The notes: generated by a model from the sequence alone, not told the origin. 64,000 nt of DNA from an uncultured delta proteobacterium (GCA_963737905.1 CAVTUQ010000010.1:64001-128000), one strand, 5' to 3'. Positions 12,213 through 55,507 are shown, counted from the stretch's first letter. A program made the numbers and translations.

Positions 12213-12875
12213 TCAGTTCGACGGCACGGCCGACGGCCTCTGCGCTGTCGGGTTGGGCACAAAAATCAGGAAAGATTGCCGGTCAAGAAAGTTGAACTCG
12301 TTTTGCAATCTGTAGCCCGCTTGCTCCATCTCTCTTTTGATAAATTCGCTAGGCGTGTAGTGCTTCCACAAGCCGTCCAGCCATCCCCTGCGATCGAATT
12401 CGACAATGGCGATCCGGCCGTTTGGGCGGAGATATTTCCGTAGGTTGGTAAGATAGCTTACGCGGTTATCGATATGATGATAGGTATTACTGGTAAAGAT
12501 GAGATCGACCCCAGGGGAGGGCAGCAAGGGATCGTCTGGTTTAGCGAGAATCACTTCAATGTTTCCAACCCCATCCTTCCTTGCCCGTTGTGCGACCAAA
12601 TCGTTCATCTCTTCGTCGACATCAACGGCGTAGACTTTGCCCTGGGGACCGACGGCCTTGGCAAGTGAAAAGACAAAATAACCACCGCCGGATCCGATGT
12701 CGGCAACCCGGTCTCCCGGACGGATCCGAAGTGATTCGATGACCCGGTCCCGCTGCTGCCATTGATCCCGGCTGAAGCCTTCGTAGGCGCACTGCTTCAG
12801 CCGCGCGCAGCCGACAATGAGAAAAAGGATCAGCAGCTGAACTTTGATTAGCTTCGTGGCGCGCGGGAGCGTCAT
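12213..12875 (-). CDS. Class I SAM-dependent methyltransferase with lipoprotein-like signal
   Basis: VADIGSGGGYF, VYAVDV, LRPNGRIAIVEF; N-terminal LFLIVGC. Confidence 0.88.
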   Translation of the reverse strand: MTLPRATKLIKVQLLILFLIVGCARLKQCAYEGFSRDQWQQRDRVIESLRIRPGDRVADIGSGGGYFVFSLAKAVGPQGKVYAVDVDEEMNDLVAQRARKDGVGNIEVILAKPDDPLLPSPGVDLIFTSNTYHHIDNRVSYLTNLRKYLRPNGRIAIVEFDRRGWLDGLWKHYTPSEFIKREMEQAGYRLQNEFNFLDRQSFLIFVPNPTAQRPSAVPSN

Positions 12876-16782: not shown

Positions 16783-17397
16783 TTACTCGCTGGATTCATG
16801 ATTCGGGGACTTGGCTGCATGTTCAACGAGTTGCTCAAGCTCCTCATAGGGCTGCGCTCCGACCATGAGATAGCGCCCCGCGAGGAAAGTCGGCACGGCG
16901 TTCACACCGACGGCGGCGCAGCGGCGCCAGTCATTATCAACGGCCTCTTTGAAGCTGCGACCTATGAGAACGTCGGTTGCTTCGTCGGCCGGAAGGCTGA
17001 CTTCCTTGGCAATCTCCACGAGGGGCTCTACTTGCCCGATATTTTTTACATCGACAAAATAGGCTCGGAAGAGCGCCGAGTGTATCTCGTCCCCTTTCCC
17101 TTTGCTTTCGGCCCATTTTGAAAGTTCCTGCGCCAGCCGGCTGTTGTAGGACATGTTGCGCTCGGTGTTATACGGGAGCCCCTCGCGGTCCATGTTCACT
17201 TTCATGCGCTGATTTCTTGCGACGATTTCGGGTCCCCTCATGCTCCCCTCCACCGGAGTCTCAGGATGAAGCGGGAATTGCGTGAACTTGGTCGTCAGAT
17301 CGTAATTCGCTTTGAGTTTCTCGACACGCCCGGTGACGAGATAGCACCATGGTCAAACAAAGTCTGAAAAGATTTCGAGAACGAGTGGCTCGGACAT
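16783..17397 (-). CDS. DsbA/FrnE-family thiol oxidoreductase, predicted selenoprotein (UPWC)
   Basis: RBS GGAGGG and ATG 17397 give MSEPLVLEIFSDFV-TGA-PWCYLVTGRVEKLK...FPLHPETP, in frame with ORF 16783-17253, which has the cis-Pro motif AVPTF and GAQP. Confidence 0.88.
17318..17341 (-). promoter_or_regulatory. Putative bacterial SECIS hairpin
   Basis: Minus strand TCTCG-T-CAC-CGGGC-GTG-T-CGAGA starts 11 nt after the UGA, with a G-containing loop about 20 nt downstream of it. Confidence 0.6.
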
Positions 17398-17470
17398 AAT
17401 CCCTCCGTTTTCAGCTGTGTTTCTCGGATAATCAGGATTCTACTGTTCCTGGTTGGCCGAAGTCAAAGGG

Positions 17471-18028
17471 CTATCGTTGTTTTGTGAGCTCAAGCTGAGG
17501 CGAAGTCGGATAGAAGATCTTTGTCCCCTTTGGCGTTGCGAATGGCGGCAAGTGATGCTCGTGACAGCCATCGTCCAGAATATGACGTACAGAAAAGCCG
17601 CGAACTAGAAACGCATCGGCCAGAAGCTGCCGATGGCAGCGCCACGGCACGGCCTCGGCGCACATGATGGCGATCCGTTTGCTCGCCACGAGCTGTTCCA
17701 TTTCTTGCATAATTTTTTCGAATCCAGGCGTGAGCATAAAATCCGCGTAGGCGCGAAATGCGCCTACTTTCCAAGCCGTGTTCTGAGAATCACTAGATGG
17801 CTGTCGGAACCCGCCGAGATCTTCCCGCCAGAGGTAATCGAGGTTCTCGTTGCGCAAATATTCGACCAACGCCTCTTGGCGAAAATGCGGATAACGGCGC
17901 GAGGAGGGCCAGCGGCGCACATCGACGAGCAGTTCAATGCCATGAGCCTTCAGAAGCGCTGTGAAATTCTCAATGGTTCTTGTGGAATGGCCGATGGTAT
18001 GAACGGTGCTTGGCAAGTTGGAATTCAT
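17471..18028 (-). CDS. DUF488 family protein
   Basis: TIGHSTR, LVDVRRWP.SRR.PHF, MCAEAVPWRCHR. Confidence 0.9.
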   Translation of the reverse strand: MNSNLPSTVHTIGHSTRTIENFTALLKAHGIELLVDVRRWPSSRRYPHFRQEALVEYLRNENLDYLWREDLGGFRQPSSDSQNTAWKVGAFRAYADFMLTPGFEKIMQEMEQLVASKRIAIMCAEAVPWRCHRQLLADAFLVRGFSVRHILDDGCHEHHLPPFATPKGTKIFYPTSPQLELTKQR

Positions 18029-18106
18029 AGGATTTATCTTTGGCCTCATTACCAAAATAGCCGAATCCTAGCTGATCGCAACGGAAGGGGATGCTATGAT
18101 CGCGCC

Positions 18107-19322
18107 ATGTTTCGTTCCGTGCCGCTGACGCTTTTTTGGTTCGTCTACATGGGTTCTGTGGGGATCGTGCTGCCATACTACAGCCTTTATCTCAAGGAGA
18201 ACGCCGGCTTGTCGGGAACGGAGTTGGGTTGGGTCCTGGCCACCCTCCCGCTCGTGAGCATCGTCGTGCAGCCCTTCTGGGGACACGTCGCAGATCGAAC
18301 CGGCGCCCGCAGCCGCATCGTGGTCGTTCTCTCCATTGGAACGGCGCTCGGCTACCTCGCCCTCGCTGCGGCCGGAGGTTTTTGGGCCATCTTGTTTGCT
18401 ACGGCGGCGATGGCGGTTTTCGGGGCCGCTGTGCTGCCTATCACCGTTTCCGTGAGTCTGGCAATCCTCCGCGACGCTGGACCCCATGCTTTCGGCTTCG
18501 TGCGTGTTTGGGGCACCATTGGATATTTTGTCTTGATTGTGAGTTTTCCTTGGATTCTGGAAAGCTATCAGGCAGCTCGAGGGTTTTCACCGCCAAAAGG
18601 CGGGGCTACCGAGCCGGGATTGGGGATCATGTTTGTTGTCACCGCCGTCCTCGCCGCGATATCAGCGCTGGTCGGCTTTTTTTCTGCCCCGGCAAGGTAT
18701 TGTCTCCATGCGCGCTGCGCGCGGCGATTGGCGTATGCTCTTGGGCAATCGCGCCTACATTCGTTTTCTTCTCTTCTCATTTGCGGCATATCTTCTATCG
18801 CAGGGACCGATGTGGCTGTTTCCGATTTTCGTTCGCTCGCGCGGCGGCGATATCGAGACGATTCGCAACATGTGGGTTTATATGCTTGTCGTCGAGATTC
18901 CGCTGGTGCTGGCCTCGGGGAGTGGCTTACAGCGCCTCGGCGCCCGCGGGTTACTCGGGGTCGGCGTTGTCGTGGGTGGACTACGTTGGCTTCTTTGCGC
19001 TTTTATCAACGACCTGCACCTTCTCTCACTCGTGCAGACCCTTCACGGCGTGACGGTAGTGGGTCTCCTCATGGGCGGCCCGCTTTATCTCGACGTCGTG
19101 GCGCCGGAAAAATTGCGCTCCACAGCTCAAGCGCTCCTGTCCATGGTCGGGGTCGGAATCGCAGGGATTGTATCGAATCTTGGGTCGGGGTGGTTGTTGG
19201 ATGCCGCAGGAATCAATGCACTCTACGCGGCGACGGGGATCGGTTCGGCTCTTCTGGGTTGCCTTGTCTGGTGGATACTGCCTGCGCCCAAGCGCGCGGG
19301 AAGCGGATCAACTTGCAATTGA
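18107..19322 (+). CDS. MFS transporter (1-bp frameshift in T7 run 18677-18683)
   Basis: MFRSVPLTLFWFVY...WGHVADRTG...FGFVRVWGTIGY. Removing one T joins the C-terminal ORF 18633-19322. Confidence 0.85.
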
Positions 19323-19391
19323 CGTGATGCCCGTTTATACGAGATCATAATTGCTAGAACCAAGTCGCACAATATTTGGGAGCAACGTCAC

Positions 19392-22447: not shown

Positions 22448-23098
22448 ATGTTCAAGCCTATGTGTCCGCCACGGACGATAATCGTGGTCGGTTGGCTTTT
22501 TTGTCTACTGCTCAGACCGGTGTCGGCAGCGTCCCAGAGTAAATCCGCAAACCAAGCTTTAGTGGGGCCGGGACCGACTCTAGGATCAGCCAGCGCCGCC
22601 GTGACTATTATCGAGTTCTCTGATTTTCAATGCAGTTTCTGTAAAAGGTTTTGGACCGACACTCTGCCCAAGCTTAAAAGTGATTACATCAATACAGGAA
22701 AGACGCTTTTTATTTATCGGCACTTCGCTATTCTAGGAAAACATTCCGAGCAAGCTGCCCTGGCGTCGGAGTGCGCCGCGGAGCAAGGGAAATTCTGGGA
22801 GTATCATGACCAGCTATTTAAGAATCAGGGCGGGCTGGCCTTCACCGAAGCCAAGCTTAAACAATACGCGGGCGGTATCGGCTTGAACGCCGGAGCATTC
22901 GGAACCTGTCTGGGAACCGGCAAGTATAGAGAAAAAGTCGAGCGCGAGACTGTGGCTGCTGCTAATCTAGGAGGGCGGGGGACGCCATTGTTCATCGTTA
23001 ATCAGCGTCCTGTGGTTGGAGCCCAGCCTTACGCTGTCTTTCAGAAGATGATCGAGGAAGAGTTAAAATCCCAAGAGGAGAAAAAGAAAACCAAGTGA
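22448..23098 (+). CDS. Secreted DsbA/BdbD-family oxidoreductase
   Basis: EFSDFQCSFC, EQGKFWEYHD, GTP, GAQPY. Confidence 0.92.
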   Translation: MFKPMCPPRTIIVVGWLFCLLLRPVSAASQSKSANQALVGPGPTLGSASAAVTIIEFSDFQCSFCKRFWTDTLPKLKSDYINTGKTLFIYRHFAILGKHSEQAALASECAAEQGKFWEYHDQLFKNQGGLAFTEAKLKQYAGGIGLNAGAFGTCLGTGKYREKVERETVAAANLGGRGTPLFIVNQRPVVGAQPYAVFQKMIEEELKSQEEKKKTK

Positions 23099-32979: not shown

Positions 32980-33652
32980 TCATGTTGCCGACCCGCCGAT
33001 GGTCTTTCCATAGGTTTGAATAGCTTCCACTACACCATGAAAGATGAGTCCCATACCCATGCTAGCGACAAAAAAGCCGACAATGCGCGTGGCCGCGTCT
33101 ATCCCCTTAGGGCCGATGCGGCTGAGAACTGTCTTGGCGTAGGCTAGAAATAGATAGGTGACGAACATCGTAGCCACAATGGCAAGACAGATGGCAACAG
33201 CGGAGGCGAATACAAATTCGGAGTGTTTCACCGTCGAAGTCATGCCAAGGATGGTCGCGATGGCTCCCGGTCCAAACATGATCGGCATGGCAAGGGGCAC
33301 GAAGGCGACGTCTTCATCTTTGGCGCCCGAGCCGCTTGCGACACTAGCCCAGCGATGCACCCGAGGACGAAGGTGAAAACAGGTCGAAGCCGATGCGCAT
33401 CAGGATGATGCCGCCGACAATCCGGACCATGCTCAGTGGAACGCCGAAAATCCACAGTATCAGATGCCCAAAGAAGAGAAAGAAAAATGCCAGGAGCAGG
33501 GCGTAGAAGCAAGATAGGCGCGCGACCCGTTGATGTTCGTCTTCGTCCTTGCCTTCAAGAAGCTCGAGAAAGACCGGCAGGGCCTCCAGCGGATTAATAA
33601 TCGCCAGCAGAGTTGTGAACATACCAACAAAGAGTGTCAGCTCTTGGCTCAT
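32980..33652 (-). CDS. MarC family membrane protein (1-bp frameshift near 33349)
   Basis: AIINPL...F, RIVGGIIL, AFVPLAMP..FGPGAIAT. Removing one G joins the two ORFs. Confidence 0.88.
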
Positions 33653-34060: not shown

Positions 34061-34507
34061 TCATTTTGCCGGACTCTTTGCCGGCGCTCCCTTGGAGGGA
34101 TCGACTTTTATGCGATTCGCATGCAACTCTTGAGCAATCGCAACGATGGCTTCAGCAACACGCTTGTTGGGATTGGCCCGGCAGTACTTTTCGATCCGTT
34201 CTTGCAATTGGTCTATGGTAACGGTTCCGACGACGTCAAAGGTGTCCGTGACATAAAAATTGTGCGCGGTGAAAAACCCCGCTACCCAATGCTCGATGAT
34301 CACATCGGCGATTTCGTACTGCTCGGGTGTAAAATTCTCCAGGCGCTTTTCCGAAAACTTAAGGTAGTCGGCGCAGGACCTGGAGCCGACCCCGAGAGCG
34401 AAATACCGACCGTTACTGTCGATGGCCAGCACGTTAGATAGCCACCCTGAAATTAAAAAAACTGCAAGTAGCCCAACCGTCACTAATCTAGAAAGCTTAA
34501 TTCTCAT
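34061..34507 (-). CDS. Secreted hypothetical protein
   Basis: Signal peptide, G.G..SC..Y...W..GF.TA.N...YC..NP two-Cys pattern; RBS GGAGG. Confidence 0.7.
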   Translation of the reverse strand: MRIKLSRLVTVGLLAVFLISGWLSNVLAIDSNGRYFALGVGSRSCADYLKFSEKRLENFTPEQYEIADVIIEHWVAGFFTAHNFYVTDTFDVVGTVTIDQLQERIEKYCRANPNKRVAEAIVAIAQELHANRIKVDPSKGAPAKSPAK

Positions 34508-49475: not shown

Positions 49476-50552
49476 ATGCTCATCTTGTCTAATGAAGACA
49501 TAGAAAAGCTACTTCCCGTGGGCACCTGTTTGGAAGTGCTCGAAGAGGCCTATCGTGATTTGGGTAACGGCATGGCAGCCACGGTGCCGCGGTATGATGT
49601 TTTCAGTCCGACAAATCCCAACGAATTTTACGAATACAAAACTATGAGTGGGGTCTTGCCGAACCGCAAAATCGCCGCACTACGTCTGAACTCCAGCGTC
49701 GTCAAGTGGTACGAAAAAGCCGGGGGTGTGCGCAAGGACAAATTACCCGTAGCCGGAGGCGACCGCTACGTCGGCCTGGTCATGCTCTTCAGCACGGAAA
49801 CCGGCGAGCCACTCGCGATTTTTCCCGACGGCTATGTGCAGAAGCTGCGCGTTGCCGGCGCCAGCGCCATCGCCGCGCGTTATCTCGCCCGCAAGGATGC
49901 CAAAATCATGGCCCTGTTGGGCTCGGGCTGGCAGGCGAGCGCCCACCTGGTGGCTTTGAGCATGGTGCGTGATCTCAAGCAGGTCAAAGTTTTTAGTCCA
50001 ACACCGGAATCGCGCCACCGGTTCATCGAAGAATGGGGAGGCAGCGTCGCGGCGGAAGTGGTGGAAACGGCCAGCGTCCAAGAGGCGATGGAAGGCGCAG
50101 ACATCATTATGGCGGCCACTAACTCGATTTCTGCTCTGTTTCCAGGCGATCTGCTTAAGCCTGGCGTTCACGTTTCCTGTGTGAAGCCCTGCGAATTTGA
50201 TGCGACGACTTACAAACGCGCCGATCCGCTGATCATCCACTGGCGTGAGGCAAAGCCTTTTCAAATCGCGATTGGAGTCGATCGACAGTCGATCCCCGAC
50301 ATTACCGAAGGCTGGCAACATCCGATCACGCGAGAAGATGCGGCGATATGGGATTTTCCAACACTATCCCAACTCGTTAATGGGCAACACTCTGGAAGGG
50401 TGAGCGAAGAATGCATTAGTTGCTTCTGTAACAACGTTGGTCTCGGTTTACAGTTTGCCGCGGTGGGCAGCGAGGTTTTGGCGCGCGCGCGAGAGGCGAG
50501 AGTCGGGCGGGAAATACCGACCGAGTGGTTCCTCGAGTCTGTGCATCCGTGA
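49476..50552 (+). CDS. Ornithine cyclodeaminase / mu-crystallin family protein
   Basis: LFSTETGEPLA, R.AGASAIA..YLAR, GSGWQA, GLGLQFAA. Confidence 0.88.
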   Translation: MLILSNEDIEKLLPVGTCLEVLEEAYRDLGNGMAATVPRYDVFSPTNPNEFYEYKTMSGVLPNRKIAALRLNSSVVKWYEKAGGVRKDKLPVAGGDRYVGLVMLFSTETGEPLAIFPDGYVQKLRVAGASAIAARYLARKDAKIMALLGSGWQASAHLVALSMVRDLKQVKVFSPTPESRHRFIEEWGGSVAAEVVETASVQEAMEGADIIMAATNSISALFPGDLLKPGVHVSCVKPCEFDATTYKRADPLIIHWREAKPFQIAIGVDRQSIPDITEGWQHPITREDAAIWDFPTLSQLVNGQHSGRVSEECISCFCNNVGLGLQFAAVGSEVLARAREARVGREIPTEWFLESVHP

Positions 50553-51314
50553 TAAACGGTTTCGAGTTACGGGTTTCGCGTTTCGAGTCTATGAAAATTA
50601 AGATTTTGAGCGTCTTTTTTTTGGTAGTTGTTTGGACAAGCGCTTCATTGGCTCAAACTAAACTCAAGGTCGCTTACCCTACCACGGTGGGTTCGATGGC
50701 CGTTCTCTGGGTGGCGAAGGATGCGCGACTCTTCGAGAAGCACGGCCTCGAAGTGGAGCTTATTTATGTTGCCGGGAGTTCCAAGGTCGTCCAGGCGATG
50801 CTCGCCAAGGAAATCCCCATTTCAGAAATCGCGATCCCGGCAGTGATTCAGGCAAACCTGGCAGGCGCCGATTTAGTCATGCTTGCCGACCCAAACCACA
50901 AGCCTGGCCAGAAGATATGGTGAAGCCGGAGATCAAGACTCCGGAGAATCTGAAGGGCAAAAAGATCGGGATTAGTCGATTCGGAACATCCGACGACTTC
51001 TTGCTTCGTTATATACTGGGACAGTGGAAGATACAGCCGGACCGCGATGTCACCCTGTTACAAATGGGAGGATCGCCGGAGATTTTGGCAGGATTGGGTT
51101 CTCGCGGGATTGATGGTGGAATGCTGTCTTCACCGCTCCATCTACGAGCGGCCAAGCTCGGGTTTTCGGTGCTCGCCGATTTGAGCGCCATCGGTGTCGA
51201 TTACCAGGGAGCAGGGGTCGTCACGACCCGCACGTATGCGCGCGAGAATCAGGATGTCGTGCGCCGTTATTTGAGAGCATATGTCGAAGGTTTGCACTGT
51301 TTCAAGACCGATAA

Positions 51315-52670
51315 TGTTGTAGCAAAGTGATTATGTCAGGGGTCAATAGCAACGTGATTATGTCAGGGTATGGGGATGAGAACCCTGACGATGAAGGAAG
51401 AGAAGCGGTTAGAGATTATACAAAGAGTGTTTCGAGGCGAGTTAACGATGGGGAAGGCATCGTTGGTGCTGGGAGTCAGTGAGCGGCAGTGCTACCGGAT
51501 CAAGGCACGGGTTAAGCAGACAAGGAGTTAAGGGAGTGGTGCACGGCAATCGGGGGCGGCTGTGTAAGCGTAAGATCAAGGAGAAAGAGGTCAAGCGCAT
51601 CGTGGAGTTAGCCAAGGGGAAGTACCGGGGGTTTAACGATCATCATTTGACGGAGAAGCTCAAGGAAGAGGAGAAGATCGAGCTGAGTCGGGAAAAGATT
51701 CGGCGTCTTCTTCGTTTTCACGGGATCGCTTCGCCGAGAAAGAGACGTGCGAACAAGCATCGAAGCCGCCGGGAGAGAAAGGCGGCTGAGGGGATGATGC
51801 TGCAAGTGGATGGCTCCCCCCACGATTGGCTGGAAGGACGAGGGCCGTCTTTGTGCTTGATCGGGGCCATCGATGACGCTACGGGCAAGGTGGTGGGAGC
51901 AATGTTTGTCGAAGCGGAGAGTTCTTGGGGCTACTTTCGTCTATTCTCGGAGATCTTCAAAAAACATGGTCTGCCGCACTCAGTCTATGCTGACCGGCAC
52001 TCGATCTTCTGGACTGACAGAGAACCGACCCTTGAGGAGCAGTTAAAGAACCAACGTCCTTCAACCGAGGTGGGCAGAGGCCTGCAAGATCTCGGGGTGA
52101 CCTTGATCCCTGCGGGCTCGCCTCAGGCCAAGGGCAGAATCGAAAGGCTGTGGGGGACTTTCCAGGACCGGCTGGTTAGTGAACTCAGAAGGGCGGGAGC
52201 TAAAACCCAAACCCAAGCACAAGTCGTGATTGAACGGCATCTCCCCGAGCATAACCGCAAATTCTCCAAACCGGCTGTCCAATCAGAGCCCGCCTGGAGA
52301 AAAGCCAGCTCCACCCAGATTGAGCAAGCCCTGTGTTTTAAACAAACACGCACCGTCGCTAAGGACCACACCGTTACCTTTGAAGGCACGCTCTTTCAAA
52401 TCCCCAAAAAATCTCCCTATCGCCCCTACGCCAACAAAAGGATCGATGTGCATGTGCTGTTGGACGGTGCAGTGGAGTTTTTCTACCAAAACGAAAAAAT
52501 CGCTCGCTTCGACTCTAAAACAACGCACAGAATTGGCTTATATCGAACGAACGGCAAGCGGGAAGGGTTCCGCTATGGACCTCTTTCGGCTCTATCAACT
52601 AAAACCCTTGAACTATCACCCTGACATTTTCACGTTGCTGTTACCCTGACAGATTGACGTTGCCACGACA
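51315..52670 (+). mobile_element. IS1202-family (ISNCY) insertion sequence with 17-bp target duplication
   Basis: TGT...ACA ends, two repeated ~25-27-bp units at each end, flanking direct repeat TGTTTCAAGACCGATAA at 51298-51314 and 52671-52687. Confidence 0.92.
51376..52624 (+). CDS. DDE transposase, IS1202/ISNCY type (1-bp frameshift near 51514)
   Basis: N-terminal HTH MRTLTMKEEKRLEII...LGVSERQ, then HGNRGR, QVDGSPHDW, YADRHSIF, PQAKGRIERLWGTFQDRL. Confidence 0.92.
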
Positions 52671-54397: not shown

Positions 54398-55507
54398 TCA
54401 GCTGATTTCCCCCCCTAGCCAGACCCTTACCGATGGCTGATCGTTCGTTATAGGGCAATTATGGAAGCCGTTTTTGTGCTCGATGCCCGTCATCGATGAA
54501 TTCATAACCTCTGGGCTCTGCGGCCGAGAGATTTCTCTGGGTTTGTTGATCCATGCGGCAGTCGGTAACAGAGCGGGGCTTGGCAAGCCACGCACAAAAC
54601 GGTGAGGATTTTTCTCATAGGCTTGCTTGAGTACTTCGGTCCTCTGTTCGCGTCGGTTTGCCGCCAGCCCATAGTGAACCTCGTACGGCGTTAAGTATCC
54701 CAAGCCAGAGTGATGATGCTCGTGGTTGTACCAGGGGAAAAACTCGGTCAAGAATCGGTGCGCATCTTGGTAACAACCAAAGCGCTCGGGAAACTCGGGG
54801 CGGTACTTCATGGTCTTGAATTGGCTCTCCGAATACGGGTTGTCATTGGAGACATACGGGCGGCTGTGGGTCTTGGTCACTCCCAGCCCCGCCAACAAAA
54901 ATGCCACCGCCTTGGATGTCATCGGCGCCCCCCGATCCGCATGCACCGTGAGGCACCCGGGCTCGATGTCGTGGCGCTCCACGCTTTGCTCGATGAGTTT
55001 CTTGGCCAACTCGGCCGATTCCCGGTACGCCAGCATCCAGCCCACCACATAACGGCTAAAAATATCCAGGATCACGTAGAGGTAAAAATACGTCCACTTC
55101 GCTGGCCCCAACAGCTTGGTAATATCCCACGACCACACCTCGTTTTGCCCAGTCGCGATGAGCTCAGGGGCTTGATAACGGGGATGTCTGATCTGATCTC
55201 TTCGTTCTCTGACTTGCTGATGGGTTGCCAAGATCCGGTACATCGTACGCTCGGAGCACAGATAGCTTCCCTCATCTAAAAGCGTGGCATAGATTTCCCC
55301 AGGCGCTTGGTCGCAAAACCGCTCGCTGTTAACCACCCCCAGCACGTCCTCTCGCTCGCTTACCGATAAGGCCCGAGGATGAATCCGTTCGGTTACAACT
55401 CCTGGGCTCGGTCGTTGCCATCGGTAGTAGCTGGCCCGCCCAATTCCCACCCCCGCGCAGATCGATTCCACCGTATACGTTGCCTTGTTTTCTCCGACCA
55501 CCCCCAT
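54398..55507 (-). CDS. IS3-family transposase OrfB (integrase core)
   Basis: WSWDITKL, ILDIFSRYVVGW, HADRG, DNPYSESQFKT.K. Confidence 0.93.
   Translation of the reverse strand: MGVVGENKATYTVESICAGVGIGRASYYRWQRPSPGVVTERIHPRALSVSEREDVLGVVNSERFCDQAPGEIYATLLDEGSYLCSERTMYRILATHQQVRERRDQIRHPRYQAPELIATGQNEVWSWDITKLLGPAKWTYFYLYVILDIFSRYVVGWMLAYRESAELAKKLIEQSVERHDIEPGCLTVHADRGAPMTSKAVAFLLAGLGVTKTHSRPYVSNDNPYSESQFKTMKYRPEFPERFGCYQDAHRFLTEFFPWYNHEHHHSGLGYLTPYEVHYGLAANRREQRTEVLKQAYEKNPHRFVRGLPSPALLPTAAWINKPREISRPQSPEVMNSSMTGIEHKNGFHNCPITNDQPSVRVWLGGEIS

Follow-up and report, generated by a model that had tools for sequence, protein, structure and literature searches.

A predicted selenocysteine-containing oxidoreductase of the FrnE/DsbA-like family, read through an in-frame UGA, in an uncultured delta proteobacterium

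We analysed a stretch of 64,000 nucleotides from an uncultured delta proteobacterium (GCA_963737905.1 CAVTUQ010000010.1:64001-128000), called here the window, and within it a minus-strand gene at positions 16783 to 17397, counted from the first letter of the window. Judging from its sequence, this gene very probably encodes a genuine selenoprotein of the FrnE/DsbA-like type, in which selenocysteine (Sec, U) takes the place of the nucleophilic Cys in the CPWC motif, giving U-P-W-C. The product would be a thiol-disulfide oxidoreductase of 204 residues, located in the cytoplasm and belonging to the FrnE branch of the DsbA-like family (PF01323 / COG2761). The gene is systematically mis-annotated; read correctly, it regains a residue of its active site and indicates that the host uses selenium. 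The features on which this reading is built are as follows.

16783..17397, minus strand: full coding sequence of the predicted FrnE/DsbA-like selenoprotein, 204 codons plus TAA (16785-16783), with Sec at codon 15
17402..17406, minus strand: Shine-Dalgarno (SD) sequence GGAGG, 4 nt ahead of the ATG at 17397-17395, by direct reading
17353..17355, minus strand: in-frame UGA at codon 15, predicted to be read as Sec, the first residue of the U-P-W-C redox motif
17319..17341, minus strand: predicted selenocysteine insertion sequence (SECIS) hairpin, TCTCG-T-CAC / CGGGC / GTG-T-CGAGA, a stem of nine positions with one U.U mismatch
16783..17253, minus strand: truncated open reading frame (ORF) of standard gene calling, GTG start, 156 aa, from the mechanical ORF list

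Direct reading of the minus strand gives ATG at 17397-17395 as the start codon. When TGA is translated as U, the frame reads MSEPLVLEIFSDFV-U-PWCYLVTGRVEKLK..., contains this single TGA and is open to the TAA; the TGA is followed by PWCYLVTGRV, so that the motif stands in the context FSDFV-U-PWCY. The preliminary description of this DNA had proposed a strong ribosome-binding site with an ATG at 17397 and FSDFV-TGA-PWCY in one frame, and had stated that the ORF track, starting at 17253, misses the active site; all of this was borne out, the mechanical list containing only the 156-aa ORF. This truncated ORF drops the first 48 codons and with them strand 1, the UxxC motif and helix 1. The start signals are common to the homologous genes, in which an SD-like core lies at the matching place in 78 of 81 cases and the aligned start codon is ATG in 77 of 81. 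Across 79 full-length genes the amino acids of codons 2-14 are kept (F10, D12 and V14 are each identical in 79/79), while the third positions are free, with an entropy of 0.8-1.9 bits, which argues that the region upstream of the UGA is translated. In the same 79 genes, purifying selection on the protein with free synonymous change is seen on both sides of the UGA.

With U entered as C, the protein matches the Pfam family DSBA (PF01323) with an E-value of 1.9e-30 and 106.5 bits against a cut-off of 25.6. The match places residues 7-190 on profile positions 2-189 of 191 and thus spans the UGA. No NCBIfam model reached its cut-off, the best being the Rcas_1661 family (NF041057) with 34.8 bits against 190. 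Among solved structures, the top sequence match was FrnE of Deinococcus radiodurans (5cnw/5cp1; E 1.8e-18, query residues 2-187), in which SDIA-C-PWCY pairs with SDFV-U-PWCY of the query. U15 stands opposite the first Cys of the FrnE CPWC motif, in agreement with the earlier proposal that the UGA occupies the position of the nucleophilic Cys.

An AlphaFold2 model built from a 47-sequence alignment had a mean predicted local distance difference test (pLDDT) score of 96.0 and a predicted template modelling (pTM) score of 0.91. In this model, strand 1 comprises residues 5-11, UPWC residues 15-18 and helix 1 residues 16-31; since helix 1 begins at residue 16, U15 is placed at its N-terminus. Based on the fold search, the closest structures were SCO1869 from Streptomyces (TMq 0.88) and the FrnE entries (0.84-0.86), with classical periplasmic DsbA at 0.56-0.67. 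The modelled protein is thus a thioredoxin fold with an inserted helical domain, nearer to FrnE and SCO1869 than to periplasmic DsbA. P169 of the AVPTF loop, the putative cis-proline, is invariant, both in the 47 alignment sequences (47/47) and in the Sec-form genes (79/79). By direct reading no signal peptide is apparent, and strand 1 of the model starts as early as residue 5.

The state of the active-site codon was followed in close and distant homologues. A scan of a genome collection confirmed 127 relatives, and the best 80 of these, with 52-90% identity, were kept. TGA stands at the aligned codon in 80/80 of these loci. The more distant Cys forms were obtained by an exhaustive search of cluster representatives and are full length (196-233 aa), with about 28-54% identity; in the 47-row alignment, Cys occupies the U column in 45 of 46 such homologues. 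TGA in all 80 loci together with Cys in 45 of 46 distant homologues amounts to Cys/Sec alternation at this codon, for which the preliminary description had suggested looking. The exception, P0247 (33% identity), reads IYSDYIWPYCY, with W for the first Cys; it may be a case of TGA translated as Trp and possibly an independent Sec lineage.

The hairpin noticed earlier as beginning 11 nt after the UGA was found at 17341-17319. It follows the spacer CCATGGTGCTA and carries a 5-nt apical loop, CGGGC, at 17332-17328. The published model of the bacterial SECIS (bSECIS) asks for a loop of 3-9 nt, an upper stem of 4-16 bp, a distance of 16-37 nt from UGA to loop, G in one of the first two loop positions and a minimum free energy (MFE) at or below -7.5 kcal/mol (PMC13188914). 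The window hairpin lies within these constraints, with a 5-nt loop, G as its second base, 20 nt from UGA to loop and -9.1 kcal/mol. Its stem consists of 8 pairs and the one U.U mismatch, and the passages of the source that describe the model are silent on such a mismatch (PMC13188914). The loop G is followed by G here and by U in the alphaproteobacterial forms. Among the 81 homologues, -7.5 kcal/mol is reached in 59 by the named structure and in 61 by the MFE of the 23-nt segment alone.

Compensatory change in the stem was assessed in an alignment of 45 columns and 81 sequences, which form 50 distinct rows. At pair 19-33, 27 rows have GC and the other 23 AU; at pair 21-31 the split is 29 CG to 21 UA, and both pairs are intact in every row. 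Pair 16-36 is less strict, with CG in 34 rows, UA in 2, UG in 1 and no pairing in 13. Neither the observed covariation score nor the observed percentage paired was reached by any of 500 shuffles, and controls with slid partners gave at most 0.120 against the observed covariation score of 0.241. At the codon level, the pairs for residues 21 and 25 are GTC/GTC in 38 sequences, AGT/ATT in 33 and AGC/GTT in 5, while GCT/ATC, ACT/ATT and AGT/ACT occur in 1 sequence each; all six preserve pairs 19-33 and 21-31.

Synonymous sites are frozen over the hairpin only. The third-base entropy is 0 at Thr22 (ACC 79/79), Gly23 (GGG 57/57) and Arg24 (CGT 79/79) and 0.2 at Leu20, whereas the 39 conserved four-fold codons outside the hairpin have a mean of 1.36 bits and none of them falls below 0.2. 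In its agreement with the bSECIS constraints, its compensatory changes and its suppressed synonymous variation, the hairpin noted in the preliminary description behaves as a SECIS.

Several observations weigh against the prediction of a Sec-decoded gene and have to be set beside this evidence. The window stem is imperfect because of the U.U mismatch, and the hairpin is weaker than -7.5 kcal/mol in 22 of 81 homologues, mostly alphaproteobacterial ones. Nor is the 61-nt context more stable than its shuffles (z = +0.77, with 158 of 200 shuffled versions folding as well or better); thermodynamic stability is unexceptional, and what speaks for the hairpin is covariation and the conservation of synonymous sites, not energy. 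A single helical turn separates residues 21 and 25, and contacts in the protein could account for part of the covariation. However, whether Val is written GTC or GTT, and Ile ATT or ATC, follows the partner base, which argues for selection on the RNA and not just for an i/i+4 contact in the helix. A competing fold directly after the UGA, pairing positions 5-12 with 20-27, is present in many MFE folds; its pairs are almost invariant, with no covariation above shuffles, and give no support either way. Against Rfam, the whole window gave no match at the gathering thresholds, and hence no curated RNA family over the hairpin. The genome scan used peptide patterns from the gene's own subfamily, so that the 80 loci sample the clade and not the whole family. 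Finally, a tRNA scan of the 64-kb window found none, no SelA, SelB or SelD match was obtained among the 60 window ORFs scanned with NCBIfam, and Rfam likewise gave nothing in the window; in the relatives, a tRNA-Sec adjoins the gene in just 1 of 80 loci.

The last of these points bears on the alternative that survives best, although we consider it very unlikely: that the UGA is decoded as a standard amino acid (Trp, Gly or Cys), by a reassigned code or by read-through that needs no SECIS. In its favour, the Sec machinery of the host is not seen within the 64-kb window, and two database homologues (P0002 and P0247) carry W here, some gene caller presumably having taken TGA as Trp. Against it, the stops of the 38 family-supported window ORFs are TGA in 19, TAG in 12 and TAA in 7; as UGA ends half of these ORFs, it is the main stop codon and not a reassigned sense codon. 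The site is also the catalytic Cys of CxxC, where Trp or Gly would abolish the redox chemistry, and it is followed at the expected distance by the conserved, covarying hairpin with the bSECIS loop signature. Moreover, a tRNA-SeC with the anticodon TCA lies beside the gene in one relative, an alphaproteobacterial metagenome-assembled genome (MAG; L057, 2713-2806, minus strand). This tRNA was found by ARAGORN and scores 71.5 bits with Rfam RF01852 against a gathering score of 47; it is divergent from the gene copy and about 195 nt upstream of it. Its neighbours encode an acyl-CoA ligase, a glycosylhydrolase-like protein and an acyl-CoA dehydrogenase and are not sel genes.

A second alternative is that the TGA is a substitution error of sequencing or assembly, or a nonsense mutation in a decaying gene. 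Broken-looking genes do exist in the window (a transporter at about 18130-19327 and an SsuA-like gene split at 50917-50923, both described below). Yet the TGA is found at the same codon in all 80 independent genome loci, down to 52% identity, purifying selection acts on both sides of it, and the start signals (SD and ATG) persist in 77-78 of 81 genes. It had been argued earlier that an indel could not explain the TGA, and this holds, since the frame is the same on either side; a substitution error is excluded by the 80 independent genomes. We regard both the error and the pseudogene as exceedingly improbable. Hardly more credible is the idea that the short ORF from GTG 17253 is the real gene behind an untranslated leader of 48 codons: almost all database entries are called in this way, but codons 1-48 show protein-level conservation together with synonymous variation across 79 sequences, they supply strand 1, the UxxC motif, helix 1 and strand 2 to a thioredoxin fold predicted with confidence, and the Cys-type homologues are themselves 196-233 aa long.

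The database record illustrates how a gene with an internal UGA is lost in annotation. Among the 120 closest homologues listed by a word-index protein search, 119 (71-92% identity) are 141-207 aa long and cover 68-85% of the query; the remaining one, P0002, covers 100%. When 16 homologues were aligned, 15 proved to be without the active-site segment, while P0002 spans it and has W in place of U, presumably because TGA was translated as Trp when the gene was called. In six clusters of close homologues, the members are 134-176 aa long, the cluster of P0002 excepted. Names were looked up in 8 clusters: 16 of the 53 listed members are named, all as 'predicted DsbA family dithiol-disulfide isomerase', and none of the 53 bears a selenoprotein name.

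Based on established knowledge of bacterial Sec decoding, we suggest the following scheme for the expression and action of the predicted selenoprotein. During translation, the hairpin would act as a SECIS and recruit SelB-GTP with Sec-tRNA(Sec). UGA-15 would then be decoded as Sec in competition with release factor 2 (RF2). When selenium or SelB is lacking, a peptide of 14 residues would be released. The full-length product may cycle between the selenolate/thiol state and a selenenylsulfide with Cys18. It may act on disulfides or on other oxidised cytoplasmic substrates, as proposed for FrnE.

The family to which the window gene belongs has been known since 2005, and the gene is a further member that will not surprise a specialist in selenoproteins. 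DsbA-like UxxC selenoproteins of COG2761 were described in that year from the Sargasso Sea metagenome with nine sequences (PMC1088965). Among bacterial genomes, the family is recorded in Anaeromyxobacter dehalogenans, Desulfovibrio desulfuricans and Desulfotomaculum reducens (PMC1794560), and a review of 2026 contains the entry 'DsbA-like protein form 1, PF01323, UxxC' (PMC13188914). These three sources agree with the earlier statement that DsbA-like selenoproteins are documented. As described there, form 1 resembles the window gene in belonging to PF01323, in having UxxC with Sec for the first Cys and widespread Cys homologues, and in a SECIS with G in a small apical loop directly downstream of the UGA. 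The comparison of its marine, Anaeromyxobacter, Desulfovibrio and Desulfotomaculum examples with the clade of Binatia and Alphaproteobacteria treated here is one of description only.

With FrnE, the window protein has in common the xPWCY active-site context and the VP(T/F)F cis-proline loop, and no signal peptide is apparent in either. FrnE differs in having Cys where the window protein has Sec, the identity being 26-27%. It also differs in length: FrnE has 260 residues and the match stops at its residue 211, so that the 204-residue window protein is without the C-terminal tail of FrnE. This tail presumably carries a second Cys pair; the title of a PDB entry names a C239S mutant. The Rcas_1661 family NF041057 likewise combines a thioredoxin/DsbA-like fold with Sec and Cys forms, as does the family of the window protein. 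The latter is not a member, however, since the match of 34.8 bits (E 1.2e-08) concerns the C-terminal part alone.

At the RNA level, the element predicted here agrees with the E. coli fdhF-type SECIS and the bSECIS consensus in being a stem-loop of the coding region directly 3' of the UGA, with a small loop containing G followed by G/U. Its sequence is unrelated to that of fdhF, and its U.U mismatch is G.U in other members of the clade; its function as a SECIS is a prediction. The 11-nt spacer corresponds to what we take to be the spacing of the minimal E. coli element, a value that a literature search did not confirm. Searches of the accessible literature found no paper joining Binatia with selenocysteine, Binatota with selenoprotein, or 'FrnE-like' with 'selenoprotein'; they did not extend to the alphaproteobacterial lineages.

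Most of the 80 kept relatives are MAGs whose label is Binatia, 'Deltaproteobacteria' or an alphaproteobacterial group such as Stellaceae, and further labels are single Betaproteobacteria, Acidiferrales, Chloroflexota and Eisenbacteria and two Verrucomicrobiota. In a tree from a quick search, with support from the Shimodaira-Hasegawa-like approximate likelihood ratio test (SH-aLRT) only, the window gene falls inside a group of 57 rows (support 98) made up of Sec forms alone, most of them with a Binatia label. The Sec forms cluster together, and 2 changes of state are needed. Three Cys representatives form an unresolved polytomy with the Sec forms, so that the Sec/Cys switches, one or more, cannot be ordered. 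Near-identical copies of the Binatia-type gene occur in four MAGs labelled Udaeobacter, Verrucomicrobiia, Chloroflexota and Eisenbacteria (L002, L009, L031 and L033), which suggests mis-binned contigs or recent transfer.

A further proposal, which we put forward tentatively and consider possible rather than probable, is that these genes form an obligate-Sec FrnE-type clade across Binatia and Alphaproteobacteria (the latter Stellaceae and relatives) of soil and groundwater, in which the SECIS has shaped the protein. Two observations are consistent with it. No reversion to Cys was seen in the 80 genomes. In addition, residues 21 and 25 occur as the amino-acid pairs V/V, S/I, S/V, A/I, T/I and S/T, all of which keep the hairpin; as the two residues change only in hairpin-keeping codon pairs, the RNA structure may dictate the choice of amino acid in helix 1 beside the active site.

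A third Cys-type position stands at residue 160, in WRRC, whose codon lies at about 16918-16920 on the minus strand. Of the 79 Sec-form genes, 56 have Cys there and 23 Ser, and Cys is absent from this position in all of the 21 full-length Cys-form homologues displayed.

Concerning the neighbourhood, the window is syntenic with two of the loci, L001 and L003; with L001 it shares 96% identity in the neighbouring binding protein and 94% in the C-terminal half of the transporter of the major facilitator superfamily (MFS). A DUF488 gene lies directly upstream of the selenoprotein gene in the window, an arrangement common to just 4 of the 80 loci. Genes for a protocatechuate 3,4-dioxygenase, a CMD-family protein and an alpha/beta hydrolase are found upstream on the opposite strand in 19-22 of the 80 loci, and the window is without them. 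Such upstream genes, resembling the beta-ketoadipate pathway, occur for example in L004, L005, L010-L013, L015, L016, L020-L022 and L025. No conserved operon partner is common to the clade among the 80 loci.

Further selenoprotein candidates in the window were sought by listing frames with one or two in-frame TGAs. The best-looking one, 34609-33689 (minus strand) with TGA at 34063, was rejected, since it reads as two adjacent genes in the same frame, the second with its own Met and a lipoprotein-like leader. The methyltransferase at 12213-12875 was likewise discarded, since it matches selenoprotein-named models via its methyltransferase domain alone. The window also contains a second DsbA/thioredoxin-like gene at 22448-23098 (plus strand), a Cys form (FSDFQCSFCKRF) with a hydrophobic leader. 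It scores 145.6 bits with the Rcas_1661 thioredoxin-like (seleno)lipoprotein family, under the cut-off of 190; as a selenoprotein it was dismissed, because its motif is an ordinary CSFC.

Three other genes of the window appear incomplete. The MFS transporter at about 18130-19327 (plus strand) extends over two frames, and the ORFs 17633-19327 and 18633-19322 each match half of the MFS profiles, which suggests a frameshift, a pseudogene or an assembly error. The SsuA/SaoX-like substrate-binding protein (50525-51330, plus strand) is split into the overlapping ORFs 50525-50923 and 50917-51330 and adjoins transposases of the ISNCY family (51479-52624, plus strand) and the IS3 family (54398-55507, minus strand). 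The MarC/NAAT transporter ORF at 32980-33360 (minus strand) corresponds to profile positions 115-220 of 223, the C-terminal half of the family profile, and the N-terminal half is absent from that ORF.

Knowledge of Sec decoding and of the DsbA-like selenoprotein family is left unchanged by this gene. If the clade were indeed obligately dependent on Sec and its protein shaped by the SECIS, it would be a well-defined natural case in which to ask why the way back from Sec to Cys is closed to some redox enzymes. The Binatia-type and Stellaceae-type soil bacteria would be added to the organisms that use selenium for a cytoplasmic thiol-disulfide enzyme, and the value of the finding lies in the annotation of these genes and in the use of selenium in poorly known soil lineages.

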